A DNA stretch of 64,000 nucleotides from Nemertoderma westbladi (taxonomy: Eukaryota > Animalia > Xenacoelomorpha). Positions 1 to 51,526 of this stretch are shown in pieces. Location of the stretch: the NCBI GenBank assembly GCA_032718475.1, contig JAUCBJ010007937.1, positions 1-64,000 of the forward strand, given 5' to 3'. How positions within the stretch are numbered: position 1 is the stretch's first letter; each line of letters opens with the position of its first letter. Position numbers and translations under genes: made by a program. A model generated the notes under the pieces. It was given only the letters and a program-made list of their open reading frames with translations, ran no database searches and was not told the origin of the DNA.

Positions 1-245
1 GCTCCAAAAGAAACAAGGGGTGTACAGTCCCTAATTTCTTAAACAGCCTACCAATGTATAAGATCACAATCGAAATAATACTAAGGTACTTGTACAGCAG
101 TACCGGTTCAGGCAGTTGGGCCTACGGACCTACAAGAGTAATACCGGTTATGACAGTTGGGCCTACTGACCTACTGGTACCGGTTCTGATGTACCGGTAC
201 CTTTCAATCTTATTACTTACCGCAAATAAGATCGATAGCTATTAT

Positions 246-1477
246 TGTACGCGCTTTTATAGACCTTCAGCAGTTTAACCTGCCGAAATTTATATGTCTT
301 TATTGATAATCTGCCTTTTGTAAGATGATAAGATTTAATACAAAACAAACCAAAAACATTAGCCGAAGCCAGTCCATGCGCGTCCAAATGACCCGTTTAT
401 AACACCGGGAGACTGGATTCGTGGGCTTAAATTTATTTGCGGTCAAGCCTACTGTATTATTCGATTGATTACTAATATATAATCTCTGACAAATATTATT
501 CACTTTCGGGAAATATTAGCAGTTCCTTTTAGGACGTGGCGCTCTACCTATGTAAACAGAGTTATGACTGATATTACACACAACGATATGGCTTAAATTT
601 CAAGCATAGGGCGCATTCTTTAGGAATGCTTTATTATCAGACCCAATCACTTTACAATCACGCACGCTACCGGTAACGCACAACACTGCTCACTGATATG
701 CCGACAGTTACTGACTTTGATCAGGTATAAAGAGATATGCACTGGACTCAGGTAGTGTCTGTCAAACAACATTAGATTCACTACAAACACAATAATAAAG
801 TCGCAATTGTTGTACATAACCCTTCTCTCTAACCTGTAGTGTATCAAGGATATTGGGAAAATGCGGGTTGATTATTGATATTCTTCAACTAATAACATCC
901 AATTATACTGATACAAAATTACAAACAGTAAAAGCAGTATGACGGTAGGTTAAGATACAATTAGATTGCAAGTGATGAGATCAATCAATTAAATGATAAG
1001 ATGAGATAATAGCTATGCTTTCTATAATTTAGCCTACTAATGTTCTTATAAAAAGGCAGAAAACATTTCGCTATCTCAAAAACGGTCTTAAAACTCTGAT
1101 AATAAAGTCTCAAAATCATAACAAAAGTCCCGTGACTTTAGCTCTCTTATTTTCCAAGAATCCCGTTCAACACAGGTAATCAGCAGTGAGACAGGATAAT
1201 TTCAGTTCAGTAGCTCGGGATTGGTCGAAATCAGAACTAACTCAACGCAGGGCTATGGGTAACTAGGGCAACCTTCCCAAGCCGGCTGGCCAATCGAACA
1301 GCTCAGATCCCTCCTAAAGGATTCCAACGCCTTGGAGGGGGGAACTGGTTAGCAAAGAAAACAAATCAGTCATATCCCAGAAAAACCTTTACAGTAGGTT
1401 TCAGAGTATTTTAGCGTATGGGGGAAAAACTGGGTTGCGGGGCGAAGGGCCAGTTACATCCCACAGAAGCTTTTACA
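246..1477 (-). mobile_element. 5' LTR (~1.23 kb) of LTR retrotransposon D (related to element A); internal region runs off the left edge (245->1)
   Basis: Minus strand reads TGTAAAAGCTTCTG...AAAAGCGCGTACA, similar at both ends and over 250-1040 to the LTR at 10014-11207 (TGTAAAAGGTTTTG...AAAAGCGCGTACA). Flanks differ (ATTAT vs GCCGC), so it is not a solo LTR. It interrupts the C-family copy at 1478. Confidence 0.75.
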
Positions 1478-2682
1478 GCCGCGTGGGATGTACGAACTAT
1501 TAAGTACAAATTCAATTAATGCAAAATAATCATATAAGTGCAATTTGTATGTACGTACGTAGTAATTAGTAATCTAGAAATATATACATTCGGAGTAAGT
1601 ACTATAGTCATACAACCTTTCTCAATTAGCTACTGGGACTGGGGGATAACTGACTATGGCACTATGGACGAGACACCAGACAATTTCACACTTCTTGAGT
1701 GCGACGGCACGAGAGGGGGGGGGGAGATTCGTCAGAAGGGAAGAGACAGTCGAAGTGAGGTTGAGGGACGGAATAATAGTGCGGAGTGCGGAGAGAGTGC
1801 GGACGCAATTCTAGTGTGGGGGGGGGGAGAATAAGAGGCTGAGTAAGGGACGAGGAGGTCCGAGTGTGAGAGAGTTAGGGTGAGAGTGAAGAAGAGATAG
1901 GGCGGAAGTGTTGGGGAAACAAAAGTTGCGTGGGAGGTGAGCGCGATCGGCCCGACATGAGACGCCAGGCACACAGGGTAGCGTTATCATACCCATAGGG
2001 GGCGGCCTGGAAAGCCGACTCCGAGAGAAAAGAATTCCACCCCACACCCGATACTAGATCGGGATCCAGCGGGATTGTAGCGCACTTTTTTGGTTGATGC
2101 TATCTTCTTACCGGGAAGATAGCATGGGGGGGAGTGTTAGCTTATTCAATCCCGCTAACACCCCATAAAGTTATAAGCCGATAAGCAATATTGGGAGCCA
2201 CGAGATTGGGTAATTAACCAACTCGTGCCATCCCAATAAGAATGGGAAGGAAGCACACAATAGAGGGTCAGGGGCCAAACCCCTAACCCAGAGAGAATAG
2301 GTGGAGTGAACGGGAACACTCCAAAGGGCGCCAACAAGGGTATCAACCAATCAGAGGGGGGAAAGGCATCGAACAGGTAGAGTAACAAGGCCAACCGTGC
2401 AGTATAGCCACTTGGCAGTAATATTACCAATTCAGTTATCTCAGTGCAATACCGGTGCTAGTTAGGTTATTACATAGTTTTAGATAGGGAAGGACCGGGA
2501 CTTTAGTTACCGTATCCCGCCTTCCGTATACGACAATATTATATCATACTATATCTATATCTATATCCACATGTTATATTATATACGACAAACAACATCA
2601 GAACTCGTTTCACTCTTTATACACGGCGGGGATGCGTGAACTAAAACCGGATAAACCGGGATCCCTCTTGGATCCCGTCACA
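1478..2682 (+). mobile_element. 3' end of a C-family BEL/Pao copy (C'): 3' UTR, polypurine tract and 3' LTR (2135-2682)
   Basis: 1478-2360 is a near-identical reverse complement of ~38985-39869. PPT GGGGGGGAG is followed by TGTTAGC at 2135; the LTR ends GGATCCCGTCACA at 2682, then element A gag resumes. Confidence 0.9.
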
Positions 2683-5600
2683 GTAAAACTACAACTCATC
2701 AAGCAGTCCAGAGAGAAAACATCGGAAAATAAGGTAAGTGAGAAACCCGTTTCTAGGAGAAGAGTAACACCAGTGTGTTACACTGACGACGGCGAAAGCC
2801 AAGCTTCTCAAGAAGAGGACAGCGGGAAAGACACTGACCGATCTTACTACGTTAGCAAAACCTCAAAGGACGTAAGTAAATACAAGGCTCGAACCAAAGA
2901 TAGGAGAGAACAGGTTGCCAAGACTCCTCCTCAGTCTCCTAACAGAATGCACGGAAGAAAGACCGAAGAAAGAACGAGAGTGCATCAAGTTACCCAAGGT
3001 AAAGTGAGTAACATCAAACCAAACTGTGCGCTGTGCGATGGGACCCACCGTTTGAGTGCGTGTGCTGAATTTCTAAAGAAATCCCTTGTAGACAGACGTG
3101 CAGTCATGTGGGATAAGCGGTTATGCTATAATTGCCTCAGATCAGGACACCAACGGCGAACCTGTTACTCCGACGTAAAGTGTGCAAAGTGTGGCGCGAA
3201 ACATCACATCTTGTTACACAGTGAGTTCGAACGAGACAACCCGAGTCAGGTAAGTGAGCCCGAACTACATGTCCAATTCAGTGATGTAAATGACACTGAT
3301 CAAGAGTCTGAGATGGAAGGATTCTATACTGACGAATTCTCCGACGCCAACGAATCCTGTTACCTAATCAATACCGCGGTGTATCGAGCACTTACTTATG
3401 AAAAGGACACCGACAATGAGTTCCCCCCAACTACTTTTGCCAGACAACCATCTTGGAAAGCTCCAACTTCCAACGTAGGAATCAGAGAATTTCCTGTAGT
3501 ACAGGTAAGAGTTCACGGTCCTAACAAAAGTTACATAGTGAACGCCCTCCTTGACTCCGGCAGCACAGGAACATTCATCGATCAAGAACTAGCCGAAGAT
3601 ATCTTTGCTGGACAACCCAAATTCCGGACTAAATTGAATATGTCAGGAATTATGCAGGTTTGGAAATCTACCCTAACGGCAGATTACTATGTAGGTGTGT
3701 TGTCCACCCCCCAGGATAAATTAGGAGCACAAGGTATAAGGTCGGTAAAACTGGTGGCTATAAAGAACTTCGATACTACCCAAGCAGACCTTTATAATTG
3801 GGACGAGGATGAGAGCATCCAACATCTTAAGATACCTCGATTCTAGACAGATTATCCTGGAGTGCAAATACTCATCGGCCAAAACGCGCATGAGGCGCTC
3901 GAGACATTGGAGAAACGGCCTGCTCAACCGCAGCCACTGCAAACCTATGCGGTAAGAACTAGAGTAGGTTGGTACTTTACTGGCCCTTCCCGCAGAACTC
4001 TCGAAGAGAGAATGCCACAAGAACGAATATACCAAGTAAACGATTGGGAAGTGGAGAGCAATGAGGTGGACGAACTAACTGAGGGAACACCATACTCCTC
4101 AGATAATGACGACATCTACCAACTCTTCGATGAAGAGAACACAATCGACCTACTTACAGAAAACAAAAGTTGGAAAAACCAGGTGAACCTATGTCAACTG
4201 ATTCGCCCATCGGGACCCATTGATTACAATGACGAACTAAATGATGAGATAGAGCGCTACAACGCTAGAACTCGGGACGAACTCGCCGTACGATTCTTTA
4301 CTCAAGAATTGGTAGAGCCCAATTCATACGATAAGGCCCTATCGATAGAAGAAGAAAGAGCCAAGCAAATCCAGGAAACAACTATACGTTTTTTAAAAGA
4401 TCAAGGTAGATATGAAATCGGCCTATCATTTCGAAAACGAGAACCTAGATTTATAAATAACAGACCCTTGGCAGAGAAAAGAATCACTCAATTACATCGA
4501 CGCCTTACGGCTAACGCTTCAGCTAAAGAAATGTACCAAACTCAGTTGAAGAAATTTATTACAAAGGGATACGCGGAGCGAGTACCGGAAGGAACACCAG
4601 TAACTGAGAGAACGTATTACTTAATACATCATTACGTTCCCAAACCCGGTAAACCCCATGAAGTACGAGTCGTATTCGATGGCTCTGCTCTATATATGGG
4701 CCAATCCCTCAATTCCGAGTTGTTACCAGGACCCAACTTACTCCAATCTTTGTTGGGAATACTTTTAAGATTAAGACAATATTCCATCGCGTTCGCCTCC
4801 GATATAGAAGGAATGTTCTTACAAGTCAAGGCGCTGGATAGAGATAGAGACAGCCTGAGATTTCTGTGGTGGCCTGAAGGAGATCTCAACCAGAAACCGG
4901 TAGAGTACTGGATGACCATCCAGGCTTTTGGGATCATATCAAGCCCTTCCAACGCCTGCTCCATGGTGCGGACCACTGTGAATGACAACCGAGACGCCTT
5001 CTCAAAAGAGGTGATAGACAACATCAAGCGTAATATATACATGGACGACAATTTAAGGTCCCTTCCATCAGTAGAAGAAGCCATTGATGTCGCGAAAGGA
5101 ATGGTAGAGTGTTTGAAAAGAGGTGGATTTCGACTGACGAAATTCACCAGCAACTCCCGTGAGTTTCTGGAAGCGATACCGGTAGAAGACCGAGGAACGA
5201 AAGATCTAGACTTAATAAAGGACGATCTTCCAGAAACCAAGACGCTTGGCTTGAAGTGGGACACCGAAAGAGATATCCTGTTTTTTCAGCTAAAACAGCG
5301 AGATAATCCAGTTCGGACCAAACGGATTTGTTTAAGTATCCTGAGCACTTATTTCGACCCATTGGGATTTATTAGCCCAGTTATATTGATTGCTCGGAGT
5401 TTAGTACAACAAATGTGGCTTGAAAACCACTCATGGGACGATCCGCTTAAGGGAGAACTGTTAAAGAAATGGATGAAATGGGAAGATTCTCTACCTGCCA
5501 TCGAGAGCTTTGTAATTTCCCGTGCATATTTTGGTCATGTTCTTCCTACATATTCCTATCAACTCCATGTGTTTGGAGACGCCAGCGACATGGGAATAGG

Positions 5601-7915
5601 TATAGTAGCATATCTGCGAGTCGAAACTCCGGATGGAATCAAAGTCGCCTTGGTTACCTCTAAGGCATTGATTAACAACAAGTTAAAGGTTCCTCGAGCG
5701 GAGTTAAAGGCGGCTTTATACGCTACAGCCATCGGCCGGAACGTAACAGAACAAATCGACTATCCACTGGAGAAAACTGTTTATTGGACCGACGCTCTAC
5801 TCGTGTTGGAGTATATAACCAATGAAGTCTGTCAGTTCAGCGTTTTTGTTACTAACAGGGTAGCTATTATTCTTAGTCGCACAAAGATAGATCAATGGAG
5901 ACATTGCCCTGGTACGATTAATCCAGCTGATATCGCCTCCAGGGGAGCAACACCACAGGAACTGATAGATACTCCAGACTGGTTGGGTGGACCCGACTTC
6001 CTGAGTAAGGAAGAGGATGAATGGCCTCCTCACCTTACTACGGCGGAGATTAGACAAGCCAAGGGAGCGGAGAAAGTCAAACCTAAAACCCGGGCGAGTA
6101 AATCGAAGTTATTTAAACCGACTATCGATCTATCTGTATTACATACTTCCGGAAACGATGCTTCGGATCCACAATCCCTCGCCACAAATAAGTCTGTTGT
6201 GGAAATTAGAGATAGAGATTGGAAATCTGGAACACCAGACGTCTCGCAAGGAATCTCACCCCTGCTGCAGAGAGCAATGCATCACTACAGTTCCTGGAAT
6301 CGGCTCTGTAAAGCCGTCACATATTTAAGGCGATGTTTTCATCATCACTACTCCAGGACGAAGACCATTAGTGATACCGCTCCATTGACATCTGCGCAAG
6401 TTCATGTTATTAAAAATTTACCCAAATATAAGACATCCGACCGGTTTCTAAAGGAAAAAATCAGTTACCAGGAGCATGAAGAAACCAATAAGCAGATACT
6501 GAGACTCCTGCAATGCTATGAGGATTCCGATAAGTATTTCCTGTTGTTGAGAAATCCGCAGATGCGCTTAAGGGATCGCTTCTCTAGCACAATGATAGAT
6601 GGGTTAATACGTGTTGGAGGAAGGCTCACCAATGCGCCATTATCCTTTGACACTAAATTCCCCATACTCATTAGAAATCTTGAAGTACAAATCAAGATGA
6701 TTGTAGATGTTCACAGTAAACTTTATCATGCTGGTAGAGAACGAGTTCTTAGCGAAATTCGAACTCGCTATTATTTTGATAAACCCCGTAGAGCTCTGAA
6801 CCAAGTTCTTAGGAACTGCATACCCTGTATTCAGTAGGCCTTTAACACAGCGAGAGGCAGAATTACCTAGGGAACGAGTAAGCTTCTATGAACCACCTTT
6901 TACTAATACTGGTGTAGATTTATTTGGCCCTATTGAAGTATATCGTGCTAGGACTATAGTCAAGAGATGGTGTGTCATCTTCGTATGCATGACTTGTAGA
7001 GCCATCCATCTCGATATGGTGAACGATCTATCTACCAACAGCTTCGTCTTAAGTTTACGCCGACAGATCGCTCGCTTCGGGACGAGTAATACCATGAGAT
7101 CGGATAAGGGAACGAACTTCATTGGTGCCAACAACGAAATCCAGGCTTACGTGAAGGACTGGAACCAAAGACAGGTGGACGATCAGCTAAGGATAACAGC
7201 GTCTAGCTGGACCTTCAACGCCGCCGACGCCCCTTGGTGGGGAGGAAGTTGGGAGAGATTAATTAGAAGTGTCAAGACCGCATTTCACTTTATAGTGCCA
7301 TGCCGCGCGTATCTCACCGGCGAACTTTTGCGGACATTAATGGAGGAAATAGCTGCCTATCTCAACGAGAGACCGCTTATGTCAGTCTCATCGAGTCCCG
7401 ATTCCCTGGAAGCGCTAACACCCGCGCACTTCCTACTGAAGAAACCTGTAGCCATGCTCCCACGATCGGAGATTACCGACGGAGACGAATACTGCCGTCG
7501 AACTTGGCAACTTATGCAGTTGCTATCCCGTCGTTTCGCTGACCATTTCGAGAAACATTATCTGCCCACGCTACAACTTCGAACTAAGTGGTTTGCGCAG
7601 CAAGAAAACGTCAGAGCCGGAGATATGGTGCTTATTGTAGATTCAGGCCTTCCACGTAAACGGTGGCAGACAGGTCGTATCATCGAGACTCACATCTCGG
7701 ATGATGGTTTAGTACGCTCGGTAGAACTCGTCGTCATGCGGCGTAACTTCAAGAAGCCAGGCATAATCTTTGAGACGCAACAACTCAACCGCCCAGTTGG
7801 TCATTTATGTTTACTGGAAAGAGACAGAGAACTCTCCGGAAACTATGGAAGGCAAGACACTCTTCCCACGACCACCTCCCTAATTCCTCAAACATCTAGG
7901 GACTCCCCAACGTGA
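2683..7915 (+). pseudogene. Disrupted BEL/Pao gag-pol polyprotein of element A
   Basis: Triple zinc knuckle (CALCDGTH, CYNCLRSGH, CAKCGAKHH), protease LLDSGS, RT YMDD, RNase H FGDAS...YWTD...NPAD, integrase SDKGTNF...WERL. In-frame TAG at 3844-3846 and a frame break/deletion near 6835. Confidence 0.92.
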
Positions 7916-10013: not shown

Positions 10014-11207
10014 TGTAAAAGGTTTTGCGGATATAATCAGTCCCCTTGCCCGCAAAGTACCGTTGTAGGTGTTTTAACGGACATAAAAGTCATTCTTCTA
10101 TATGTGTGCTTTGGCGGACGTGGCAAGGCAAAAAACCCGCAATGCGTCAAATACTCTAGCACAGTGTAGCCTGGATGATTCAGATTACGACATCTAACAG
10201 CTGGTTGCTGGCATGGAAACGGCCATTGGACACATGGTTCTTTGTTTAGCTTAACAGCCAATCAGAGCGATTTTTTCTGTCGATGTGGAGATATTCTGCA
10301 GATCGTGCTAGGAGTGTTCAGTCTTACTTTTTTTTCTTGATACTGTTGTGTTGTTTCTATCTAGGCCAAGAACACCGGCTCTAGAGTCAATTTGTTTCAG
10401 ACTTTAGAAGAAACATTAGTAGGCTTAGATTATAGAACGTATAACTGTTATCGGTCCAGTACAATCAGTGCAATCAGCAGCAGTCTTATATCACTGCAAC
10501 ATACATTATTATACTGCTATTTACTGTTGTCATTATTTGTATCAGATGGTTGAATATTAATATTTGGAGAACATCTATAAAGAACCCAAATTTCCCAATT
10601 TTCTTGATACACTACAGGTTAGAGAGACGGGTTACATATAGCGATTGCGACTTATATTATTGTGGTTTGTAGTGAATTTAATGCTATTTGATAAGCACTA
10701 CATGAGTCAATTGCTGTTCTCTTTATATATGATAAAATTCATTGACGGTCGGCAAATTAGTGTGCAGTATTGTGTGTTACCGGTAGTGTGCATGATTGTG
10801 ACTGATAACTAAGCATTTCCTAAAGAATGCGCCTCATACGTGAATCATAAGCCTTACCGACTTACCGTTGTGTTTAGTATAAGTCATATCTCTGTTTACC
10901 TAGATAGAGCGCCACGTCCTAATAGAACTGTTAATATTTCCCGAAAGTGAATAATATTGGTCAGAAATTATTTATTAACGATCAATCGAATAATACGGTA
11001 AGCTTACACTGCAATAACAATCTAAGCCCTCCGAATCCAGTCTCCCGGGTATATCCAGCGGGTGAATGGACGCGCACTAGGCTGGCTTCGGCTAATGTTG
11101 TGTTTATTGGTATTAAATACTTGTCATTTTCTAAAGTTTATTTATAAACCAAAAGACATATAAATTTTGGCAGGTTAAACTGCTAAAGGTCTTCAAAAGC
11201 GCGTACA
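10014..11207 (+). repeat. 3' LTR of element A (~1.19 kb)
   Basis: Starts TG right after PPT GGGAGCGG, ends GCGCGTACA; diverged inverted homolog at 246-1477. Confidence 0.75.
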
Positions 11208-12757: not shown

Positions 12758-12957
12758 GTGAGTCATCCCAATTCCTATAACTACAACTAACTGTTCTCGA
12801 AATTCATTTAAATTTTACAATAAGCTGCTTATATAGAATTATATTCCCTAAATGCCGTGGATTTTCAAAATTTTATTTTATTCGGATTAACTTTGTAAAG
12901 ATTGCTTTGAGTTCTCACTCGTATTGGTTCTATCTATTATGCATCTATCGGTCAAGT

Positions 12958-13034
12958 GGTTCAGTAGCTCAGTTGGTAGAGCGTTGGAAATTATATGTGT
13001 AGTAGGTATCGAGTTCGAATCCTAGTAAGTGCGA
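12958..13034 (+). promoter_or_regulatory. tRNA-like Pol III A/B-box module in the LTR (second copy 29659-29735)
   Basis: TAGCTCAGTTGGTAGAGC (A box/D arm) and GAGTTCGAATCC (B box/T loop) at tRNA spacing; acceptor and anticodon stems do not pair, so not a functional tRNA. Confidence 0.65.
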
Positions 13035-13100
13035 ATTATTTTTTGTGCAGAATTTCAACTCATTTAAATTAACCGCTACAAATTAATTGCATTTGTCTGT

Positions 13101-13380
13101 ACCAATGAGGCTGTAGTTATTTGATTGTAACCAATGTCGTGCAAGTTATATATTAGCTGGACCAATAGCTATCTTTAAAACCCTGTTAGAACCTATAGAA
13201 CAATCGGGAATTTTCTCGATTGATTGCGGCACAAATTTGGTATAAAAAGGTGCGATTTGTTCATTAGTTGACAATTATATCTATCTAATTCAATCTCAAT
13301 TGCTGATCTACCTTAACTTTCTGTCTTATTTCAGATTACATTGTTTATTGTATAATAGTTATTATATCTTTTGTAATAAA
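13101..13380 (+). promoter_or_regulatory. Putative LTR Pol II promoter and poly(A) signal of element B
   Basis: CCAAT at ~13102, 13131 and 13162; TATAAAA at 13241; AATAAA at 13375. Confidence 0.5.
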
Positions 13381-15547
13381 AGTCAGAAATACTAGTCACA
13401 TCTCAGCCCTTTTCTATCTGTTTTACTATGGTTTCACTACGGTGAACAAACTCAGGGACAGGATGGCCGGCTAGAGATCGGGCCGCAGCAATGAACGGGA
13501 ACATCACGGGAATGTAGACGAGAGACAACCCGCAATACCATTTAGAGTTATTCGCCCATCGCCTGAAAGGTTAGACAGCGTTCGATCCTTGCTACCTAAG
13601 TGTAAGACCAAAAGATCAAAAGGTAGACGTAGTGACACGCTGTAAGCCCAAAATTACATCATAGGGACTGTACCGTCTTGATTCAGGAAAAACCCACAGT
13701 AGACCTTCATATTCCTACGGGGGAGGGAGAGAGAGCAGATACTAGTACGCAGATAGGACGTAGGCACACCGGTACAAGGCATACACATTGGTTAGGGTGC
13801 AGCAAACTGTACGCTTAACTCTTGCTAAGTACAGGTGTGTGTGCGACTATTTACAGTACGACAGTGTCCATTACATCAGAACTTGTAGGCTAAGGGGGTT
13901 GCTGTGTTTTCACCTGAATTGGGATTGTACCGTTCAGGCGGTAGGGCAGTTTACACTAGGCGCAAATAAATTGAGGCTATCAGGGATATACTAACATCTA
14001 CCGTGTCCCCGCCAACGCCCTAATAGGAAGTTACCCGGACTACCTGGGTGACTAAAATTCTAGATAGGAGCCAGGATAGCTATTAGTACCCGTACGCCTA
14101 CAGTAGTAAACTAACACATCTCTTCTTAGTATCAGGGACCTGGTACCTAAAATTGCCGAATTCTGGGCGTAGTATTAACCTTATGCCTGAATTTGAGTCC
14201 TGGAAATACGCAAGAGGGGAAGGAACCTTATCATTCGTGAGTATTGGACCTACAAGTTACAAATTTAGAATATTCGTAAATGCACACCGCACCCAGTAAT
14301 TATATATGTGAAGGAGCAAAACTGTTTTGACCGTTCAGAATTAACACACGCGCGTTAGAAATTATTTACACCTCGAAATATATAAAATTAACTTTTGTCC
14401 GTACTGTGCTTTGCCCGCTAGTTAGACATCTCCAAATATCTGCTCTGTACCTAGCTAGCGTCCCTTTGCCCAACCATATAAATCACACCGCGGCAAAGTA
14501 TACGAGCCTCTTAGTCCGTCAGTGAGTCAGCCTGATTTTAGGATTCGATGCGCGGGATTTTGTTTCATCGAAGTTTGTCTGCTCGTAGACTGTTTTCTGC
14601 CTCACCGGTTATAAGAGATCGATACTGCAATATATTCGCTTACTTAGAGTTTACTGTTTTGGTGAGAAGGTCGGATTTATGATTTGATTCACAAACTTTA
14701 CAGTAGGATATTGCAGGTATTGTTGCTGTCTCTTCAATTAGTAGGAATGTGTTTTACTGAACTACGGTTCGGTAGGACTAAAGTTATTTGAAAATTTTGT
14801 ATTTTGAGGTAAAAGTTTGTATTTGATTAGCTAAGTGCTAATTTTGAAATAAAAATTTGATTTGAACCGCGTGTAAAATATTTTGGAATTGAATACCGGT
14901 GTTTAAAAGGGGTTTAAATACCATATTGTACCGGTACAAAATTTTCGTAAAAGTAAAACCTAACTCTTTTGTTTTTCAGGATTCAGAACTCATTTCTAGA
15001 CTGTAACGGGAGCAAGACCGTGTTTAGCAAGTTTGGGAGATAGATAACTCAACAACTTTGGTTGGGAAAATCGCGTTTCGTCCGCAACGTTAAAAACGGA
15101 AAGGTTCACGTCCGGTTTGTATCTGAGAATCTGTTTTTCTGGAGAATTATTGGAGTGGGTGAGTTTGAAAAGTTGCATAAATAAGTTAGGCATTACCGTA
15201 TTAGTTAAAATTATTGTGGGTTCCACTGTCTCAAGTATTTATGCATTCCGTATGATTTCTTTGTTCATTGCTGAATTAGTCCGTATTATTGTATTTAATT
15301 TACCTTTTGATAACGCATATCGTTATCCGATTTATTTGTTATAAAATTGGCCGCTAGGCTAATTTTATTATATACTTATTCCGTGACATTTATTTGCTGT
15401 AAAATTGGCCGTTTAGGCTAATTTTATCCATCTGCTATAAAATCGGCCGGTAGGCTAATTTTATAAGACTGTAATTAGTACCGTTTTATACAAATACGGT
15501 AAATTCGATACTTTGACACTCACTTCACTTGACTTACAACTACCGAA

Positions 15548-18500
15548 ATGAGTGACAAACAAGACTATACGAAGAATACACCTACCGACTATGACTCATG
15601 TGACGGAGATAAGTCAGCAGCGGAAGAACAACAGGGGAAGACTCGCGAGCCTACCGAACCTACACCGTGTGCGTCACCAGTACATCCAACGGGAGTACCG
15701 GATGCCGTAGTACGAGGCGACGGCAGGACCGAGGACTTTCTAACTGTTCCGCAACCTAGATATAGGGAAACGGAAATGGTAAGTTCAGCAGGAAGCACAG
15801 AAAGTGTGGTTAGAAGCGTCGGTGGATACATGGCGCATATAACCAGGAGTATTGGAGAAGGCCAACGCATATTAGACGGGTTGACCGCTCCGATGTCTCG
15901 ATTCGAGTTCTACACCCTCCAGGTTAGAGTACAGAGTAAAGTATATAAGTCCGTAGATAATCTAGTTGGCCTACAAGATCTAGCTAGACAGAGACAGGAC
16001 ATGGATACTCAACTTAGAATCCTCGAGAAACTAATGATCACTAGAGAGAAACTGATTCAGTTTAAGTCGACGATTAGACAGATACAACAGGAACAAGCGG
16101 ACCAGTTGTTAGGTGAGTCAGTTTCAGACGAATTATTACAGCCCGAGGAAGAACAGGAACTGTACCGACTGGATGGACAATTGAAACACCTGACAGATCA
16201 CTTACGCATGTGTGGCGAGGACGTCGGAGATTTGGAAACCGTGCCGGAATACACGAGGGAAACTCCATTCGCACAAATCGAATCGGCACCGGAAATATTG
16301 AATCAATCATTGGTAAGTATTCGTAGCGAAATCTGCGAGGGAAGTATGGTCACGTCAGAAGTTGCTCGACAACAGCAACAGTTCTACAGACAGCAACACG
16401 AGATGGAAGAACAAGCTCAACTTCTAATGCTACAAGCAGCAGTAGAAGAAGAGAAGCTACGCGTTGCAAATATAGCAAGAATCTCCCACCTGCAAGAACA
16501 AGCCGAGTTGGAAGCAGCCGAGATGGAAAGGTTAGAGTTGGACATTGCGCAACAAACAGCAGCAGCGGCAGCGGCTGAGTCAGAGCGACAAGCGGCATCG
16601 GCTGAGTCAGAGCGACAAGCGGCAGCGGCTGAGTCAGAGCGACAAGCGGCAGCGGCTGAGTCAGAGCGACAAGCGGCAGCGGCTGAGTCAGAGCGACAAG
16701 CGACAGCGGCAGCGGCAGCGGCGAAGATAGAGAGAAACCGGTTAGTTTTAGAAGCCAGAGCAGAAATGAAGACACGGCAAATAAAGGCCCAGTCAGCTAT
16801 ACGACAAGCGGAACTCGAGGCGCAACAACAACAAACGGAACAACACGAGAAAGAAGTTAAACTTCGTTTCGAACTCGAGAAGAAGGCGAGAGAATTAGCC
16901 AACGCCAAGGAAGACCTGGATCTACAAGCCTGCGATCGATCGATGAGATCTCGTGACGGACATGATTTGGACCAGTTAGAGGTAAGACATCGCCAAATTC
17001 AGGAACGAAAGAAGGAAGGAAGTGTAGGAGCACCCGGACGGGAACGACAATTAGTAAAAGACGTGTGTCAACGATTCCCACAGGTAACTCATATGTTTGC
17101 ACCGGTTACGACTAAGGAACCTATTTCGATTGCTGGTAGCAGCGATATCTCTCCTATCCATGGTGTGACGGAACACAGGTTTGTTATTCCGGACGAGTTT
17201 ACCCCGCCAAGGGCAACGTCGTCGCCTATTCCGAAAGTCAAGGTAAGTAACCCACCGATTACAGATCGTAGTAGTTTATTAGTCGGACCTGCACTACTGA
17301 CGATAAAACAGGTGAGTCCACCTTTGACACCTAAACCCGTTACGCACTACGATTACCCAATGACATTTCGGCCTACAAGGCCTTTGGATTCAAACGCGGT
17401 CGTCCGACCACCGTTCAACCAGTTTACATCGCAATCTACGACTTCGAGGAAGACTTGTGAGCCTACCGAACAACGGAGAACAGTGGAGACGCGACCATTC
17501 AACCAGTTTACATCGCAATCTACGACTTCGAGGAAGACTTGTGAGCCTACCGAACAACGGAGAACAGTGGAGACGCGACCATTCAACCAGTTTACATCGC
17601 AATCTACGACTTCGAGGAAGACTTGTGAGCCTACCGAACAACGGAGAACAGTGGAGACGCGACCATTCAACCAATTTACATCGCAATCTACGACTTCGAG
17701 GAAGACTTGTGAGCCTACCGAACAACGTAGATCAGTGGACGATGTTCCGAAACGGAATGTTAGAATTCGTACGACGCAACGGACGCGAGCACGTCGACCA
17801 CCATATCCGGATGATAGTAGTACTTCGAGCGAATCGGATTACCCGAAACGCGAGGTATTTAGAACAGGGGCGGCCGATGAATATAAACGCGAGCGTTCAG
17901 ACAACTCCTTTGCAGATAACCCTCCACAGAATACACCAACACAGAAGGCGTTACAACCAACGGATGCAATTAGTACACAACAGTTCGCCGACATCCTGCG
18001 ACCAGTTGTCAACAAGTTGGCTCAGATCGAGGAACGTCTGGAGGAAGGTTACACCGACAGTTCGAGAAATTCCGAATTCGAACACAATAGACACCCGAAG
18101 GGACCACAAAGACCGGTACCTTCAAACCCCACATCATATCAGGGAAAAGCGCCAAGAAGGGATATCAACAAGAATACCAACCAAGGACGCGAAACTCTGA
18201 ACGTTGCAGAGGAGATAGCGAAATTCGCAGCCAGACAGGGATTGCCGGTACAACAACCACCGAAGTTTTCCGGTAGCTCAAAACACTGGCATACCTTCGT
18301 AGACTATATCGAATCCCAGATCGCCGTGTGCGCCTTTACATCACGGGAGAAGTTCAATTACCTGCTTCAAACGTTGTCAGGAGAACCTAAACGTTTGGCG
18401 GAGACTTTCGTCGGTGTACCGGACGCTTTCGAACTAGCGTACGATCGTTTGACTTCGATATACGGAGGTACAGTGAGCATGGCCAGGTCAGTAATAGAGG

Positions 18501-21500
18501 AACTCTGTAAGGGAGGGGCTATCACTAAACCCGTCGACTTACTAAAACTAGCTGACGAGATCAAGAACGCTATCACTACCTTAAGATCAATTGGACAACT
18601 TGATTACGGGAATACCCCTACAGTTCTATTAAAGATAATAGGACGACTCCACCATCGACTTCGTCGGGAGTGGAGGAAGGTCGAATACCAGCGAGAGGAG
18701 CGAGGAGGATTCCTAAAATTAGAAGATGTGTACCTTTTAATATCCAGGGAGGCGGTAGTAGAAACTCGATCTAACTACACCGACCAGCACATCGTGGCAG
18801 AAGGAATCACATTGCCCTCTTCAAACCGACAAAAACCCCAGACAACATCCACAAAGACGGCCACTTACGCCACATCGACGGAATCACGACAATTCTCAGA
18901 CGGTAATAGAGTATCTGCGCCTATTGGGACGAAACAGACGAGACAGCAACTCAGCACCGACTTCAACGGCTGCCAATACTGCGAGCATCTAGGTAAGCGG
19001 TATATTGGTCACAAGTTACGAGGTTGTCGACAATTTCGCGAGTTGAACTCGGAAGAACGACGGCTGCAGATACGGCCACTGGACTCTTGTTGGCGGTGTA
19101 CGCGACACGGACACGTCCGTAAGGATTGCCCAAATACCGACACTTGTCCATCCTGTGGACGCAACCATGACGGTCTGCTCCACACGGACAGCCACACGCC
19201 GACGAAACGCTTCGCCAGGGAACACCCGGAAGCAGCAGCGAGATGTGATGCGGCCTACCGAAAACGAGAATCGAAAACGACTCCGACCTTCGTGACACAT
19301 ATTGAGGATTGCTTCTCAGAACAATCCGGATCGTCGGACGAAGAATCAGAAGACGACGACGAATATTCCAATGGAGACGAACAACCGTCGATCGCGCTTC
19401 TAACCACTGACCAACTGAAGGGATTCAGTGTAATCCCGATTAAGATCACTGGCACAAAGGGGAGTAAGAGGATTTACGCGATTCTAGACTCAGCCTCATC
19501 TCACAGTTACGTGGATGAAAAGATAGCTGACGTCGTAACGGATCTCAGACAAGGTAAACACGTCAGTTATACAGTAAGTAGTATGCACGGACAGCGTGCA
19601 ATACCAGTGACACGAGTTAAGTTGGACTTAGACTCTCTTCTTCCAAAATCGCAACACAGCGAGAGGGAGAGGTCTTTGTTACCCTTTAGAGATCTAACCT
19701 TTGCGGCCACGAAGGACTTTAGTAACCTACTAGGTCCAGTGCCGGAACAATCTCTGGAGGACCGTAAGTATTTCAGACACCTTGGTGTACCCGAATGTCC
19801 TGTCAATTATAGATCGGTAGCAATGCTGATCGGGACGGACCAATTCAACCTACATCAGGTGTGGGAAACCAGACCATCGGCAGTTGTAGCAGGAAACGCA
19901 TACGCCTGCAGAACGCCGATAGGGTGGTATACTCGAGCGCCTGTGCGCACACTAGACGTAAGTGACGAGGAAGACGATGTACAGAGTACATGTAGTTTAT
20001 TAACTACAAATTCAATCCATTCCTTTTCACACGACGTGAACCATACTACGCTACAGTCGACAAAACATGACAGACGGGTAACTAGTATGATAAGTCACAA
20101 GGAGCAGCTAACCCACAAGGTGAGTCTAGGACTTGGGGGGAAGACGAGTCAGCTAGAGATTCCATCGACGACAGATGATAGGCTTGCGAGTCTACCTACC
20201 CCAATAACCTCAACAGTGCCCGTCGATATCGACGATGACGCGTTGAAAATTCATCAGTTGGAACAAGCCGCCTTGGACAAAGAATTAACGGAGAAGACTA
20301 TCAGGTGGTTAGAACAAGATACAGCTGAACCTGGTAGCTACGAACCTTGTATGTCGGAACAGGAGAAACAATCTCTAAAGATCATGGAAGATACTATCCG
20401 ACAGACGGAGGACGGACATTACGAGGTGGGGATGTTATGGCGTAGCCAAAGTCCTAAACTTATAAATAACTACCCACTGGCTTTGAGACGTCTACACTCA
20501 ATACGACAACGTCTATTAAAGGACGAGAAAGCCCATCTGCAGTACAACACTCAGATGGAGACGTATTTGACTGAAGGATACGCTATCCGAATGACTAACC
20601 CGGAGCGAGTGACCGACCAGACATACTACCTGCCACATCACTATGTGAGACATCCCGACAAACCAGATAAAGTACGCGTAGTCAATGATTGTGCGGCTCT
20701 ATTTGAGGGAATGTCCCTCAATAGTGAGTTGATGGATGGACCGAACATGAATAATTATCTTATGGGGGTGATTATGCGCTTCCGTCAGCGTCAAGTAGCC
20801 TTTACTTGCGACGTTGAAGCGATGTTTCACCAAGTAAAAGCGTTAGAGCGAGACAGAGACAGTTTGCGGTTCCTCTGGTATCCGGAAGGAGACTTAAGTC
20901 TACCACCAGCGACTTACCAAATGCAAGTTCGCGTCTTCGGTGCCAGAGACAGCCCAAATTGTACGATGTACGCCTTGAAGCAAGCCGCTAGAGATCAGAA
21001 ACATCTATATGACCCAGAGATAATTAGAATTGTAGAACGTGACTTTTACGTCGACGACGGTTTACAGAGTTGCGACACAGTAGAACGTGCTACAACAGTA
21101 GCACATCAATTACGGGACTGCTTGGCGGGCGGAGGTTTTAACCTCACCAAATTCGCCTCAAACAGTGCCGAACTAGTAGACTCATTCGGAACTACTGAGC
21201 GTGGAGGTGGTGACATAGACCTAGAGTTCGAACCACTACCGACGACTAAGGTGTTAGGGCTCTTTTGGGACCCAAACACAGACAACTTTCGAGTGAAGGT
21301 GAGACTGGACAGTCAAGGAAACACACTGACCAAGAGATCATGCTTGTCAAAATTGAGCCGATTGTTCGATCCGTTAGGATTCATCAGTCCAGTGATACTG
21401 CAAGCCCGCATTTATATGCGCAGTATATGGAAGGATGGACTAACATGGGACGAGCCGATCTCATCAGACCAAGTGGACTTATGGAAGACCTGGGAGGCGG

Positions 21501-24415
21501 AATTATCTTCACTAGAGGATTATTTCATACCCAGGGTTTACTTTCCATTACAAAGTACATTTCCTGACAACTTGGAACTACACTGTTTTTCTGACGCCAG
21601 TGACAACGGTTTTGGTGTGGCAGCGTATTTGCGCAGACAAGTAGAATCGGACGAGTTCGATGTTTCGCTCATTACTTCTAAGGCTAAGACCATGCCTACT
21701 AAGTATATGACGACGCCACGAGCCGAGCTACAAGCCGCGACCCTGTCAACCACCATCGTGAACCTCATACAGACAGAACTACAGTCGAGTTTACAGATAT
21801 TTTATTGGACTGACGCGACGTTGGTTTTATTTTACATAAACAACGACACACTCGAATTCAAGACATTCGTAGCTAACCGTCGCGCGGAAATTCTAGACCG
21901 TTCAATAAAGGAGGATTGGCGACATTGTCCCGGACCACAAAACCCAGCTGATATTGCGTCGCGAGGAATGATGCCTGAGGAATTCTGTAAACCGGAGAAC
22001 AAAGAGTTTTGGCAACACGGACCCCAGTTCTTGCAGAAATCGACACAAGATTGGCCTCCGTTATACGACAACAAGTCCAACACCATTCCTAAGGACGCCG
22101 AAATCAAGAAACCAAAAAAGGGGAAGACAAAGAAAAAGACGACGGCGACAAAACTCAAGAAAAAACCGAAGGCGAAATGGAAGGATATAACTTCAAAGGT
22201 CAAGAGAGGAAGACTTGCGAGCCTTTCTACACCAGACATATCGCCAGACGGTCAACCAGACACGTTACTAGACGGTCAACCAGACGTTTTGACAGACATG
22301 TCACAAAATGTTCCACCAGACGTTAGTAACACACTGACAAACAGTGAAGCCGCAGTTTCTCTATTGGAGCGGCCTTCTATTGACAAACAACTAGATACGT
22401 TACCAGACGTATCGCCAGACACATTACTAGACAGTCAACTAGACACTAGTAATGTATTGACTAACAATAAAGCCGCAGTTTCCCTATTGGAGCGGCCTTG
22501 TATTGACAAACTACCAATTTTGACACACTTGAGCAACCATAAGCACGGTGAAACCTCATGTATTACAGATGTGGGTAGTACCTACGCTAATGTAAATACA
22601 GGTGTTACTTTGCGCTCAAGAGACATACCGAACCTGCAACCTACGTTGAGACCTGGGATTAATGTCGGCAGAAAAATAAGTTTACCGAAACCTGCTGACC
22701 CCATAGAGTTCAAACCACCATTAACGATCGACTTACAAAGTACCGACAATCAAGGTAATAGGACAAAAAGGGACAAATTACTTGTAGACCCGGACGGATC
22801 AACAGTCAACAAGGGAATACTTACCGGCGGACCCGTGGGCCCTTCTAGTAATTCAAAACCTTCCAAATTCTCCATTGACTTACCTGATGACGTCACAAAT
22901 ACTCATGTCGACCGTATTGTAAATCTAACAGATTCTTGGTCAAACGCTTGCCGAAAATTAGCGTGGATTGTACGTTTCGTACAATACGTTAAAGGCAAAC
23001 GTGACTTTACACGTCGACTTACATTGGCTGAGATTGACAGGTGTGAGATTAAATTAATTCGCCATTATCAACTGCGATATTTCGCGCGCGAATTCACATC
23101 TATACATCAAGGTCAACCAATCAAGTCGTCACCGATACTGTGTTGGAGTCCGATTATTTACAATGGCTTAATTTGTCATAAATCTCGGCTTCAAAACATT
23201 GACTTTAACACAAACTTTAGGTACCCAATAATAATACCGCAACACCACGAACTACAACGTGCAATGATACTGGACGCACATCTACATCTGAAACACGCTG
23301 GAAGACACCATTGTCTTTCCTACTTACGTACTAGATTTGTATTAATTAGACCCAGTAAAGCATTAAGTTCAGTGACACGTACGTGTATTATTTGTAAAAA
23401 GGTACATTCTAGAATAGGTACCCAAGAAATGAGTGAACTACCACAAGCACGACTTCAAGCATTCAGACCACCTTTTACAGAGACTGGTATTGATTGCTTT
23501 GGTCCCATACATACGAAACGTGGACGTATACTAGTAAAACGCTGGGGACTGATTTTCACATGTATGTCCAGTAGGGCAGTTCATATTGAACGTGTGATGG
23601 ATCTTTCCACCAACGCGTTTATACTAGCACTGCGGCGATTTATCGCTAGACGCGGACTAGTAAAATGCTTGTACTCAGACCAAGGGACAAACTTTGTTGG
23701 TGCTCGGAATGAGATTGCTAGAGCCTTTAAGAAATTAGATCATGATCAAATCTCAAACGAACTGCAACCTCACAAGATTGTTTGGAAGTTCAATCCTCCA
23801 GATAGTCCTTGGAGAGGCGGAGTCTGGGAGAGACTGATTAGATCTATAAAGACAGCAATGGCAAAGGTCATTCCAGTAAACCACATATTAACAGACGACC
23901 AACTGACAACATTGTTTGTTGAAATCGAGGCAATACTAAATACTAGACCAATAGTATTAGTACCCGATGACAAACAATCTCAGTTTGCTTTGACACCGGC
24001 ACACCTGCTAATGCAGGCACCGACGACTTTGACACCGATTTCTATTCCAATAGAAAGCGACAGCTACGGTAGAAAAGCGTGGAAAATCACGCAACTACTG
24101 GCTAACAAATTCTGGGAAATATGGCAAAACCATTATTTGCCCTCTATTTCTGCCAGAACAACATGGTACAATAACACCCGCGCATTAAAGCCGGGAGATC
24201 ACGTGCTGTTGGCAGAAGTGAATCTAAAAAGACGCTTCTGGATAACAGGTGTCATTTTAGCCACACATCCATCTATGGATGGAGTGACAAGAACTGTGAC
24301 GGTACGGACAATTGACGGTCGTACAGTAGACAGACCGACTCAACGTCTCGTACTCCTTGAAGAGACTCGTAACGAGTCTGGAGACTACAAATCTCCACCT
24401 AATACTAGTAAATAA
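15548..24415 (+). CDS. BEL/Pao Gag-Pol polyprotein, 2955 aa, intact
   Basis: Coiled-coil/repeat N-terminus, gag core (PPKFSG), three zinc knuckles, protease ILDSAS, RT YVDD, RNase H FSDAS, integrase HHCC and SDQGTNF...WERL. Confidence 0.96.
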   Translation: MSDKQDYTKNTPTDYDSCDGDKSAAEEQQGKTREPTEPTPCASPVHPTGVPDAVVRGDGRTEDFLTVPQPRYRETEMVSSAGSTESVVRSVGGYMAHITRSIGEGQRILDGLTAPMSRFEFYTLQVRVQSKVYKSVDNLVGLQDLARQRQDMDTQLRILEKLMITREKLIQFKSTIRQIQQEQADQLLGESVSDELLQPEEEQELYRLDGQLKHLTDHLRMCGEDVGDLETVPEYTRETPFAQIESAPEILNQSLVSIRSEICEGSMVTSEVARQQQQFYRQQHEMEEQAQLLMLQAAVEEEKLRVANIARISHLQEQAELEAAEMERLELDIAQQTAAAAAAESERQAASAESERQAAAAESERQAAAAESERQAAAAESERQATAAAAAAKIERNRLVLEARAEMKTRQIKAQSAIRQAELEAQQQQTEQHEKEVKLRFELEKKARELANAKEDLDLQACDRSMRSRDGHDLDQLEVRHRQIQERKKEGSVGAPGRERQLVKDVCQRFPQVTHMFAPVTTKEPISIAGSSDISPIHGVTEHRFVIPDEFTPPRATSSPIPKVKVSNPPITDRSSLLVGPALLTIKQVSPPLTPKPVTHYDYPMTFRPTRPLDSNAVVRPPFNQFTSQSTTSRKTCEPTEQRRTVETRPFNQFTSQSTTSRKTCEPTEQRRTVETRPFNQFTSQSTTSRKTCEPTEQRRTVETRPFNQFTSQSTTSRKTCEPTEQRRSVDDVPKRNVRIRTTQRTRARRPPYPDDSSTSSESDYPKREVFRTGAADEYKRERSDNSFADNPPQNTPTQKALQPTDAISTQQFADILRPVVNKLAQIEERLEEGYTDSSRNSEFEHNRHPKGPQRPVPSNPTSYQGKAPRRDINKNTNQGRETLNVAEEIAKFAARQGLPVQQPPKFSGSSKHWHTFVDYIESQIAVCAFTSREKFNYLLQTLSGEPKRLAETFVGVPDAFELAYDRLTSIYGGTVSMARSVIEELCKGGAITKPVDLLKLADEIKNAITTLRSIGQLDYGNTPTVLLKIIGRLHHRLRREWRKVEYQREERGGFLKLEDVYLLISREAVVETRSNYTDQHIVAEGITLPSSNRQKPQTTSTKTATYATSTESRQFSDGNRVSAPIGTKQTRQQLSTDFNGCQYCEHLGKRYIGHKLRGCRQFRELNSEERRLQIRPLDSCWRCTRHGHVRKDCPNTDTCPSCGRNHDGLLHTDSHTPTKRFAREHPEAAARCDAAYRKRESKTTPTFVTHIEDCFSEQSGSSDEESEDDDEYSNGDEQPSIALLTTDQLKGFSVIPIKITGTKGSKRIYAILDSASSHSYVDEKIADVVTDLRQGKHVSYTVSSMHGQRAIPVTRVKLDLDSLLPKSQHSERERSLLPFRDLTFAATKDFSNLLGPVPEQSLEDRKYFRHLGVPECPVNYRSVAMLIGTDQFNLHQVWETRPSAVVAGNAYACRTPIGWYTRAPVRTLDVSDEEDDVQSTCSLLTTNSIHSFSHDVNHTTLQSTKHDRRVTSMISHKEQLTHKVSLGLGGKTSQLEIPSTTDDRLASLPTPITSTVPVDIDDDALKIHQLEQAALDKELTEKTIRWLEQDTAEPGSYEPCMSEQEKQSLKIMEDTIRQTEDGHYEVGMLWRSQSPKLINNYPLALRRLHSIRQRLLKDEKAHLQYNTQMETYLTEGYAIRMTNPERVTDQTYYLPHHYVRHPDKPDKVRVVNDCAALFEGMSLNSELMDGPNMNNYLMGVIMRFRQRQVAFTCDVEAMFHQVKALERDRDSLRFLWYPEGDLSLPPATYQMQVRVFGARDSPNCTMYALKQAARDQKHLYDPEIIRIVERDFYVDDGLQSCDTVERATTVAHQLRDCLAGGGFNLTKFASNSAELVDSFGTTERGGGDIDLEFEPLPTTKVLGLFWDPNTDNFRVKVRLDSQGNTLTKRSCLSKLSRLFDPLGFISPVILQARIYMRSIWKDGLTWDEPISSDQVDLWKTWEAELSSLEDYFIPRVYFPLQSTFPDNLELHCFSDASDNGFGVAAYLRRQVESDEFDVSLITSKAKTMPTKYMTTPRAELQAATLSTTIVNLIQTELQSSLQIFYWTDATLVLFYINNDTLEFKTFVANRRAEILDRSIKEDWRHCPGPQNPADIASRGMMPEEFCKPENKEFWQHGPQFLQKSTQDWPPLYDNKSNTIPKDAEIKKPKKGKTKKKTTATKLKKKPKAKWKDITSKVKRGRLASLSTPDISPDGQPDTLLDGQPDVLTDMSQNVPPDVSNTLTNSEAAVSLLERPSIDKQLDTLPDVSPDTLLDSQLDTSNVLTNNKAAVSLLERPCIDKLPILTHLSNHKHGETSCITDVGSTYANVNTGVTLRSRDIPNLQPTLRPGINVGRKISLPKPADPIEFKPPLTIDLQSTDNQGNRTKRDKLLVDPDGSTVNKGILTGGPVGPSSNSKPSKFSIDLPDDVTNTHVDRIVNLTDSWSNACRKLAWIVRFVQYVKGKRDFTRRLTLAEIDRCEIKLIRHYQLRYFAREFTSIHQGQPIKSSPILCWSPIIYNGLICHKSRLQNIDFNTNFRYPIIIPQHHELQRAMILDAHLHLKHAGRHHCLSYLRTRFVLIRPSKALSSVTRTCIICKKVHSRIGTQEMSELPQARLQAFRPPFTETGIDCFGPIHTKRGRILVKRWGLIFTCMSSRAVHIERVMDLSTNAFILALRRFIARRGLVKCLYSDQGTNFVGARNEIARAFKKLDHDQISNELQPHKIVWKFNPPDSPWRGGVWERLIRSIKTAMAKVIPVNHILTDDQLTTLFVEIEAILNTRPIVLVPDDKQSQFALTPAHLLMQAPTTLTPISIPIESDSYGRKAWKITQLLANKFWEIWQNHYLPSISARTTWYNNTRALKPGDHVLLAEVNLKRRFWITGVILATHPSMDGVTRTVTVRTIDGRTVDRPTQRLVLLEETRNESGDYKSPPNTSK
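17412..17730 (+). repeat. 84-bp tandem repeat x~4 in gag (PFNQFTSQSTTSRKTCEPTEQRR)
   Basis: Near-perfect in-frame repeats. Confidence 0.9.
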
Positions 24416-31441: not shown

Positions 31442-31504
31442 GCTTAATATAGCATATAGTGACAGGACAATTGTCCCTAGACAATTATTATTGCCCTCAA
31501 GACT

Positions 31505-32555: not shown

Positions 32556-32559
32556 CATA

Positions 32560-34600: not shown

Positions 34601-34603
34601 GTG

Positions 34604-38680: not shown

Positions 38681-39210
38681 TGTGACGGAATCCAGGAGGG
38701 ATCCCGATTTATCCGGTATTTAGTTCACGCGTCCCCGCCGTGTATAAAGAGTGAATGAAAGTAAAATGAGTTCTGAAGTTCGGTGTATAATAATAGAGGT
38801 ATAAGATATAGATATATTGTATAGTATATGGAAGGCGGGATACGGTAACTAAAAGTCCCGTGCTCCCCTATCTAAACTAATTAACCTATGCTAGCACTAC
38901 TGCACTGAGATAACTGAATTACTGATATTGGGTTACTGGTTATATTGCACGGTTGGCCTGATTACTACCTAATCGATGCCTTGCCCCCCTCTGATTGGTT
39001 GATACCCTTGTTGGCGCCCTTTGGAGTGTTCCCGTTCACTCCACCTATTCTCTCTGGGTTAGGGGTTTGGCCCCTGACCCTCTATTGTGTGCTTCCTTCC
39101 CATTCTTATTGGGATGGCACGAGTTGGTTAATTATCCAATCTCGTGGCTCCCAATATTGCTTATCGGCTTATAACTTTATGGGGTGTTAGCGGGATTGAA
39201 TAAGCTAACA
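38681..39210 (-). repeat. 3' LTR of element C
   Basis: Direct repeat of 51527-52056. Confidence 0.95.
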
Positions 39211-39924
39211 CTCCCCCCCATGCTATCTTCCCGGTAAGAAGATAGCATCAACCAAAAAAGTGCGCTACAATCCCGCTGGATCCCGATCTAGTATCGGGTG
39301 TGGGGTGGAATTCTTTTCTCTCGGAGTCGGCTTTCCAGGCCGCCCCCTATGGGTATGATAACGCTACCCTGTGTGCCTGGCGTCTCATGTCGGGCCGATC
39401 GCGCTCACCTCTCACGCAACTTTTGTTTCCCCAACACTTCCGCCCTATCTCTTCTTCACTCTCACCCTAACTCTCTCACACTCGGACCTCCTCGTCCCTC
39501 ACTCAGCCTCTTATTCTCCCCCCCCCACACTAGAATTGCGTCCGCACTCTCTCCGCACTCCGCACTATTATTCCGTCCCTCAACCTCACTTCGACTGTCT
39601 CTTCCCTTCTGACGAATCTCCCCCCCCCCCTCTCGTGCCGTCGCACTCAAGAAGTGTGAAATTGTCTGGTGTCTCGTCCATAGTGCCATAGTCAGTTGTC
39701 CCCCAGTCCCAGTAGCTAATTGAGAAAGGTTGTATGACTATAGTACTTACTCCGAACGTATATATATTTCTAGATTACTAATTACTACGTACGTACATAC
39801 AAATTGCACTTATATGATTATTTTGCATTAATTGAATTTGTACTTAATAGTTCGTACATCCCACGCGGCGCCTACCAGGCGTACCACGTCCAAGTCCCAG
39901 TCTCTCTCCCTCGACTCTGGGAAC

Positions 39925-51466: not shown

Positions 51467-51526
51467 CTCGCTGGTGATTGGTGGCTGATGGTTTGGCTAG
51501 CTAGGGCAGCGGTTGGTTTTAGTTAC

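Follow-up and report, generated by a model that had tools for sequence, protein, structure and literature searches.

Introduction

To our knowledge, Tf1-type gypsy elements are the only ones in which priming of reverse transcription by an element's own RNA has been demonstrated, and for a single copia lineage it has been predicted. Passages in three accounts of Tf1 describe a cut by RNase H between bases 11 and 12 as the step that gives the primer (PMC7175516, PMC4600332, PMC5341516). For the TAR lineage of plant Ty1/copia elements (Houba, Osr-1), part of PMC6317226 predicts self-priming through a complementarity of at least 10 bp located 0-5 bp after the 5′ LTR. The BEL/Pao elements are treated by the ICTV as Belpaoviridae (Semotivirus), whose 18-nt primer-binding site (PBS) takes tRNA-Arg or tRNA-Gly of the host; their LTRs measure 0.2-1.2 kb and their genomes 4.2-10 kb (PMC8742986). 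A literature search over titles and the opening parts of abstracts, with subscription papers, Repbase, Dfam and GyDB largely outside its range, returned no report of self-priming or of a splice-built primer in BEL/Pao elements. Passages of PMC5443660, PMC3601003, PMC8220671, PMC554778 and PMC2864245 contain none, and the words "primer" and "tRNA" do not occur in the main text of PMC3118150 and PMC6238403.

The DNA analysed here, called the window, is a stretch of 64,000 nucleotides from Nemertoderma westbladi (contig JAUCBJ010007937.1, positions 1 to 64,000). A preliminary description of the window had proposed self-priming for one of its elements, D, and the present work follows up that proposal.

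Results

Organization of the window

LTR retrotransposons of the BEL/Pao type, with elements A, B, C and D, form a nest in the window. Its main components are as follows.

246..1393, minus strand: LTR of element D, 1148 bp, TGT...ACA, taken as the 5′ LTR and read from 1393 to 246
1489..2682, plus strand: C2, the 3′ LTR of a C-family element, 93% identical to C, inside the gag of A
3847..7915, plus strand: pol of element A, encoding RT, Pao RNase H and integrase, divided between two frames that overlap
10014..11207, plus strand: 3′ LTR of element A, a sister family of D, with a polypurine tract (PPT) ahead
12832..14740, plus strand: 5′ LTR of element B, 1909 bp, with TA...TA ends
15533..24415, plus strand: gag-pol of element B, a single open frame of 2960 codons
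29533..31441, plus strand: 3′ LTR of element B, with one mismatch to the 5′ LTR
38681..39858, minus strand: 3′ LTR of element C, with a PPT ahead
42909..47894, minus strand: main gag-pol frame of element C, with BEL/Pao domains
51527..52056, minus strand: 530-bp remnant of the 5′ LTR of element C, its upstream part replaced by a non-LTR-type RT element

The frames of A contain Pao RNase H, integrase and DUF5641 domains, and its gag, upstream of pol, is broken by a stop at 3844-3846 and by the inserted C2 LTR. Element B is complete and young; it has a PPT and is flanked by a 5-bp target-site duplication, which was placed according to LTRs that start with TA and end with TA instead of TG...CA. 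The 5′ LTR remnant of C differs from the 3′ LTR by three mismatches. All three coding elements match PF05380, PF18701 and PF17921, B and C also match PF03564, and homologues of their proteins carry the same Pfam families. The RT-RNase H region of B is 45% identical to that of A and 34% identical to that of C, and the acidic motifs of RNase H line up in A, B and C when the alignment is inspected by eye. The nearest named proteins come from mollusc, cnidarian, tunicate, echinoderm, crustacean and tick genomes. Thus, the hallmarks of BEL/Pao elements are present: a Pao-type pol, the order PR-RT-RH-IN and a gag with DUF1759, together with LTRs, PPT and target-site duplication (all three in B; in A and C a PPT before the 3′ LTR).

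Of element D, only the LTR and 245 bp downstream of it are visible, and the coding region lies to the left of the window. Its LTR shares 79% identity with the 3′ LTR of A across 246-940, and through this likeness alone D may be assigned, indirectly, to the BEL/Pao group to which the open reading frames (ORFs) of A belong.

Several further insertions were observed. Within 1394-2682, the order of nesting is a C-family element into the gag of A, followed later by D about 95 bp upstream of the 3′ LTR of that element. Element A is inserted beside a dispersed 188-bp repeat, whose copies at 11208-11395 and 37012-37199 are 96% identical and which is high-copy in the sequencing runs compared. The minus strand of 52151-59554 holds two 2.6-kb copies, 99.7% identical, of an ORF with RT and DUF6451, which flank a repeat-rich ORF of 671 codons and take the place of the upstream part of the 5′ LTR of C. 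Tandem arrays with periods of 27 bp and 22 bp occupy 34922-36500 and 31460-32620, respectively, and are adjoined by a broken RT fragment at 33835-34626. Long extra ORFs follow pol in B (25051-28797, plus strand) and in C (39925-42483, minus strand). They show a weak likeness to each other (26% over 114 aa), have zinc-knuckle-like motifs (weak Pfam matches) and are not env-like. Residues 390-720 of the B ORF resemble 3′-5′ exonuclease domains (PF01612 clusters, score 0.91, 24 of 30 hits), which is a lead only; a sequence search of the PDB with this ORF gave no match, and a role of the extra ORFs in primer trimming would be pure speculation. The U3 of B contains by eye an A- and B-box-like (tRNA/SINE-like) stretch at 12950-13030; ARAGORN and Rfam made no call there or elsewhere in the window.

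The junction of the D LTR

The region around the end of the D LTR contains the following features, all on the minus strand.

235..245, minus strand: primer-binding position of D, 11 nt, flush with the LTR end
1006..1016, minus strand: LTR-internal exact complement of the PBS, the predicted 3′ segment of the self-primer
1045..1050, minus strand: TATA-like hexamer of D, 34 nt above the internal complement and without a conserved counterpart in A
433..443, minus strand: U5 arm of an 11-bp U5-leader stem (reached by 1 of 300 shuffles)
219..229, minus strand: opposite arm of this stem, in the leader, 6 nt below the PBS

The preliminary description had reported that the 11 nt following the LTR are complementary to an LTR-internal site, that no tRNA-type PBS is present and that a TATAAG precedes the internal site, and all three statements were borne out. 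The sequence read from 245 to 235 is the exact reverse complement of that read from 1016 to 1006, pairing ends on both sides of these 11 nt, the second-best flush match within the LTR is 6 nt long, TGG is absent from the first 8 nt after the LTR, and TATAAG is located at 1050 to 1045. Bases 1-245 look like the interior of the element, as had been assumed. The D LTR has neither an upstream PPT nor a target-site duplication, which indicates a 5′ LTR followed by interior, and A-type contigs continue with homologous sequence. An exact complement in the D LTR was found for 192 of 200,000 shuffles of the 11-mer and for 147 of 103,978 11-mers of the window (p ~0.001). When offsets of 0-3 and both spliced and contiguous complements were permitted, at least 10 nt (10-11 nt) were also reached by 6 of 202 unrelated pairs of LTR and PBS. 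Therefore, D alone, with p ~0.001-0.03 depending on the freedom of the search, is suggestive and not decisive.

Covariation in the A family

The counterpart of the D site lies where the preliminary description had placed it.

10441..10451, plus strand: homologue of the D primer site in the A LTR, with two substitutions relative to D, at site positions 4 and 7

From this site a covarying PBS had been predicted for A-type elements, and the prediction was largely fulfilled in public contigs of run X3: positions 1-10, including both compensatory bases, are as predicted, and position 11 is mismatched. Among the matches listed, three contigs of this run, of low depth, exit the LTR of A exactly at 11207; their junction sequence is a majority call (agreement 0.91) compared by eye. 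Past the PBS they continue with sequence homologous to the interior of D, which by eye also complements 11008-11017 of A, the homologue of the U5 stem arm of D. The PBS variant comes from a single run, in contigs that do not extend to their own LTR site.

Elements B and C

The same arrangement, in other letters, was found in two more families of the window.

14741..14751, plus strand: primer-binding position of B, flush with the LTR end, no TGG
13708..13718, plus strand: LTR-internal complement of the B PBS, 11 nt with one G-U pair
51517..51526, minus strand: primer-binding position of C, 10 nt, flush with the LTR end
38854 to 38845 (3′ LTR) and 51700 to 51691 (5′ LTR remnant), minus strand: exact 10-nt complements of the C PBS

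The PBSs of D, B and C are unrelated in sequence, and each pairs with its own LTR, flush with the LTR end; as in D, TGG is absent from the first 8 nt after the LTRs of B and C. A complement as good as that of B was reached by 278 of 100,000 shuffles (p ~0.003), whereas by strict Watson-Crick pairing the B match shrinks to 8 nt and is not significant (59 of 300 shuffles). For C, 310 of 200,000 shuffles were as good (p ~0.0016). In the flanks of the 3′ LTRs of A, B and C, the best flush matches were 8, 5 and 6 nt, respectively, and downstream of the C2 LTR the best was 4 nt. The sequence downstream of C2, which starts like a PBS, was considered and rejected as one; it is the gag frame of A and serves as a negative control. 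The primer site of C2 itself differs from that of C at the first base, which predicts a matching change in the C2 PBS outside the window.

Complements across a predicted intron in the LTRs of relatives

Metagenome contigs were searched with an alignment of A, B and C, which yielded 80 loci (L001-L080) with 37-44% identity. The LTR end was set where two LTR copies part, independently of any pairing. A repeat was present in 35 loci, and in 17 of these the copies diverge inside the contig, 14 times at a CA. L021 was dropped as an internal repeat and L029 and L064 as duplicates of L035 and L052, and L043, whose 3′ copy stops at the contig end, was added on the strength of a boundary shared with L052/L064. 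This left 12 contigs of 11 families, in none of which TGG occurs at the LTR end. ARAGORN detected no tRNA in 60 of the 80 loci, and scans of IMG/VR for relatives found none.

A contiguous complement of at least 10 nt was present in one of the 12 contigs (L076, 11 nt), the others having 4-9 nt; as the contiguous-only test failed for most relatives, a splice-junction reading was tried. When a GT donor and an AG acceptor inside the LTR were joined under strict filters, a perfect complement of 10-15 nt, starting 0-3 nt after the CA, was obtained in 9 of the 12 contigs, with introns of 71-404 nt and with 0 or 1 of 300 shuffles reaching such matches. Two of the misses are L002, which gives 11 nt once the acceptor pyrimidine filter is removed, and L052, in which the 3′ LTR carries a substitution and the 5′ LTR copy gives 10 nt. 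In total, all 11 families with independently set LTR ends have a self-complement of 10-15 nt. In 10 of them a GT-AG intron within the LTR has to be removed for the complement to form at all or to form best, and in the eleventh one LTR copy has lost the intron exactly. The 3′ LTR of this family (L076) equals the LTR of its sister L078 minus a 536-nt GT...AG intron at the exact joint, which would be the trace left by reverse transcription of spliced RNA; the two L076 LTRs are 88% identical in an assembled contig, so both may stem from different copies. The 13 controls from 3′ flanks reached at most 7 nt, or 9 nt with any GT-AG.

The splice-site filters had been chosen after the junctions were seen, and therefore the later blind, wider-offset and out-of-sample tests matter. 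A first blind scan at a threshold of at least 12 nt was discarded because it missed cases of 10-11 nt and caught palindromes. In the blind scan of 37 upstream regions, a spliced match of 10-14 nt was found in 12, compared with 1 of 37 on the reverse strand; 24 regions had no match and one had a contiguous match only. Several of the misses hold no LTR by eye, an explanation that does not apply to L019, L021, L045 and L062. With offsets of up to 6 nt, 5 of 18 regions matched, compared with 0 of 18 controls. The out-of-sample locus L095 has an 11-nt complement across a GTAAG-type donor and a TAG acceptor, reached by 0 of 200 shuffles.

Elements with a TGG-type site

The out-of-sample set was retrieved with an insect-type alignment and comprised 19 loci, of which 17 were examined. 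Ten of these, from about five families, share one TGG-starting site, which we take to be a tRNA site, and in the nine TGG-type loci that were scored the best self-complement is only 4-6 nt. RT-RNase H trees were built with FastTree, the second being midpoint-rooted, with no true outgroup. The deepest split of the latter separates all 23 self-complementary elements included, one of which is L095, from all 7 TGG-type elements together with the insect proteins (local supports 0.97 and 0.99); the clustering of L001-L080 is partly by design, because they were retrieved with the window proteins. In one TGG-type family (L085, L086, L088, L090) the LTR also ends a few bases beyond the CA. Loci L082-L099 are complete animal-type BEL/Pao elements with LTRs in contigs filed as bacterial metagenome-assembled genomes, most likely host DNA in bacterial bins.

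Discussion

Complementarity, its position, covariation, the splice-site context, the exact loss of an intron in one LTR and the phylogenetic split are the observations on which an interpretation has to be built. The 14 tabulated PBSs start with G or A followed by T and are variable from position 3, differing at positions 3-10. The position where a primer must end, the lack of a tRNA site, the family-wise matching and the dependence on splicing together point to pairing at the RNA level that would supply the primer. D, A, B, C and the branch of their relatives most likely prime minus-strand DNA with their own RNA, either in cis or in trans. The self-primer reading that the preliminary description had offered for D is thus strengthened, as the self-complement occurs in two more families of the window, in 11 of 11 related families and, with covariation, in the A-type PBS, and is absent in the TGG-type elements.

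The part of that reading which took the primer to be the first 11 nt of the RNA, as in Tf1, is doubtful as a general rule. D and L030 have a TATA-like box 31-34 nt above the segment, but the TATAAG of D is missing from the LTR of A, and in three families (L035, L066, L076) a clear TATA box is 124-135 nt upstream, so the segment is probably not always the 5′ end of the RNA. The primer would then often be an internal segment with a capped 5′ tail. In 10 of the 11 related families and in A, B and D, the primer segment is followed, before the LTR ends, by a poly(A) signal (AATAAA or ATTAAA), and no such hexamer was found below the segment of C. This position places the primer segment and the intron in R.

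The cis route, in which the segment acts within its own RNA, is in our judgement probable. The LTR segment would fold back onto the PBS, and the RNase H of the element would cut the segment at its 3′ end to produce a priming 3′-OH; RNA pairing, cleavage, priming and the cis geometry are inferred here, the fold-back and the cut by analogy with Tf1. Strong-stop DNA would cover U5 together with R as far as the cut; the rest of R, with its intron, would be copied from the unspliced 3′ R. In most of the marine-type relatives, host splicing would join the LTR segment across the GT-AG intron and so build the primer; in the window elements D, A, B and C the segment is contiguous. New copies would retain the intron, since it is located 5′ of the cut and ahead of the poly(A) signal and would be recopied from an unspliced 3′ R. 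Pairing is weak in D and C, with duplex energies of -11.3 and -9.6 kcal/mol that are equalled by 2 of 30 and 7 of 30 shuffles, which speaks against the proposed route; duplex energy alone separates AU-rich sites poorly from shuffles. A Tf1-like U5-leader stem is significant in D only among 13 elements, in a simple Watson-Crick test that could miss bulged stems. As the predicted cut sites and junctions are exact, they can be checked with existing kinds of RNA data.

Self-derived priming may also proceed in trans, in which case the unspliced genomic RNA would be primed by another LTR transcript that is spliced or short, such as its partner in a packaged dimer. Priming by a spliced partner RNA fits almost as well as the cis route and would directly explain the retention of introns in both LTRs in most relatives. 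The distance from primer to PBS, which is long and variable (88-1022 nt), and the minimum-energy fold of the LTR-leader RNA of C, in which the primer-PBS pair does not form, are also in its favor. However, the intron-less 3′ LTR of L076 indicates that spliced R was copied into DNA at least once, the poly(A) position puts the intron in R so that cis priming would keep it too, and Tf1, the sole demonstrated system, is described as fold-back in a passage of PMC7175516. Priming in trans is considered unlikely, and priming in cis is preferred.

It is still less probable that the pairing is a selected RNA structure with another task, such as a translation switch, packaging or dimerisation, and that another host RNA or a protein primes. 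Covariation demonstrates RNA pairing and not priming, and several families have a long distance between the TATA box and the primer segment below it. Nevertheless, the duplex always starts 0-5 nt after the CA of the LTR, at the point where a primer has to end, the LTR end retains no tRNA-type site, and the pairing is absent in the TGG-type relatives, all of which speak for a primer. Binding of the PBS by host tRNA halves or other small RNAs, with the LTR complement as chance or by-product, is very improbable: half-tRNA priming is known in some copia lineages (according to part of PMC6317226) and D alone is compatible with chance at the p values given above, but the 14 differing PBSs are each matched by their own LTR, often only across a splice junction, and the flank, shuffle and reverse-strand controls fail.

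Taking priming by the element's own RNA as the preferred reading, a broader scenario seems plausible on balance. A deep BEL/Pao branch across invertebrate phyla would have given up tRNA priming; in most of its families the spliceosome would assemble the primer from two LTR exons, so that splicing would license replication, with the intron regenerated in each cycle from the unspliced 3′ R, and in D, A, B and C the primer would have become contiguous. If true, self-priming in a third superfamily would change the view of how priming evolved in Ortervirales, would account for many aquatic BEL/Pao elements with "no PBS" and would provide a simple annotation rule. The splice-junction form, if true, would link splicing to reverse transcription in a new way and let these elements escape control by tRNA fragments.

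The elements described here resemble Belpaoviridae in their LTRs, PPT, gag-PR-RT-RH-IN order and Pao-specific Pfam families, but differ from them in the PBS, which is not of tRNA type in D, B and C (no TGG) and is so in the ten TGG-bearing loci of the other branch, and in the size of B, with an LTR of 1.9 kb and a length of 18.6 kb. The arrangement predicted for the TAR lineage is found in D, B (with one G-U pair) and C; that lineage, however, consists of plant copia elements, and the part of PMC6317226 concerned with it describes no splice-assembled primer. The closest likeness is to Tf1 and Tf2 of S. pombe, Tj1 of S. japonicus and the Tf1/Sushi-Tcn1 chromoviruses (Ty3/gypsy), in which about 11 nt after the 5′ LTR complement an LTR segment and no tRNA site is present; likewise, the PBS here complements an LTR segment over at least 10 nt, 0-5 nt after the LTR. 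In contrast to that group, the superfamily here is BEL/Pao and not Ty3/gypsy, with a Pao-type pol and no match to a chromodomain as in the integrase of Tf1/Sushi elements; the segment is probably often internal and is split by an LTR intron in most relatives, a U5-leader stem was significant only in D, and the system is known from sequence alone. The feature described here is real and holds for a lineage and not only for D: a putative signature of self-priming that would add a third superfamily and that takes a splice-assembled form in the relatives.
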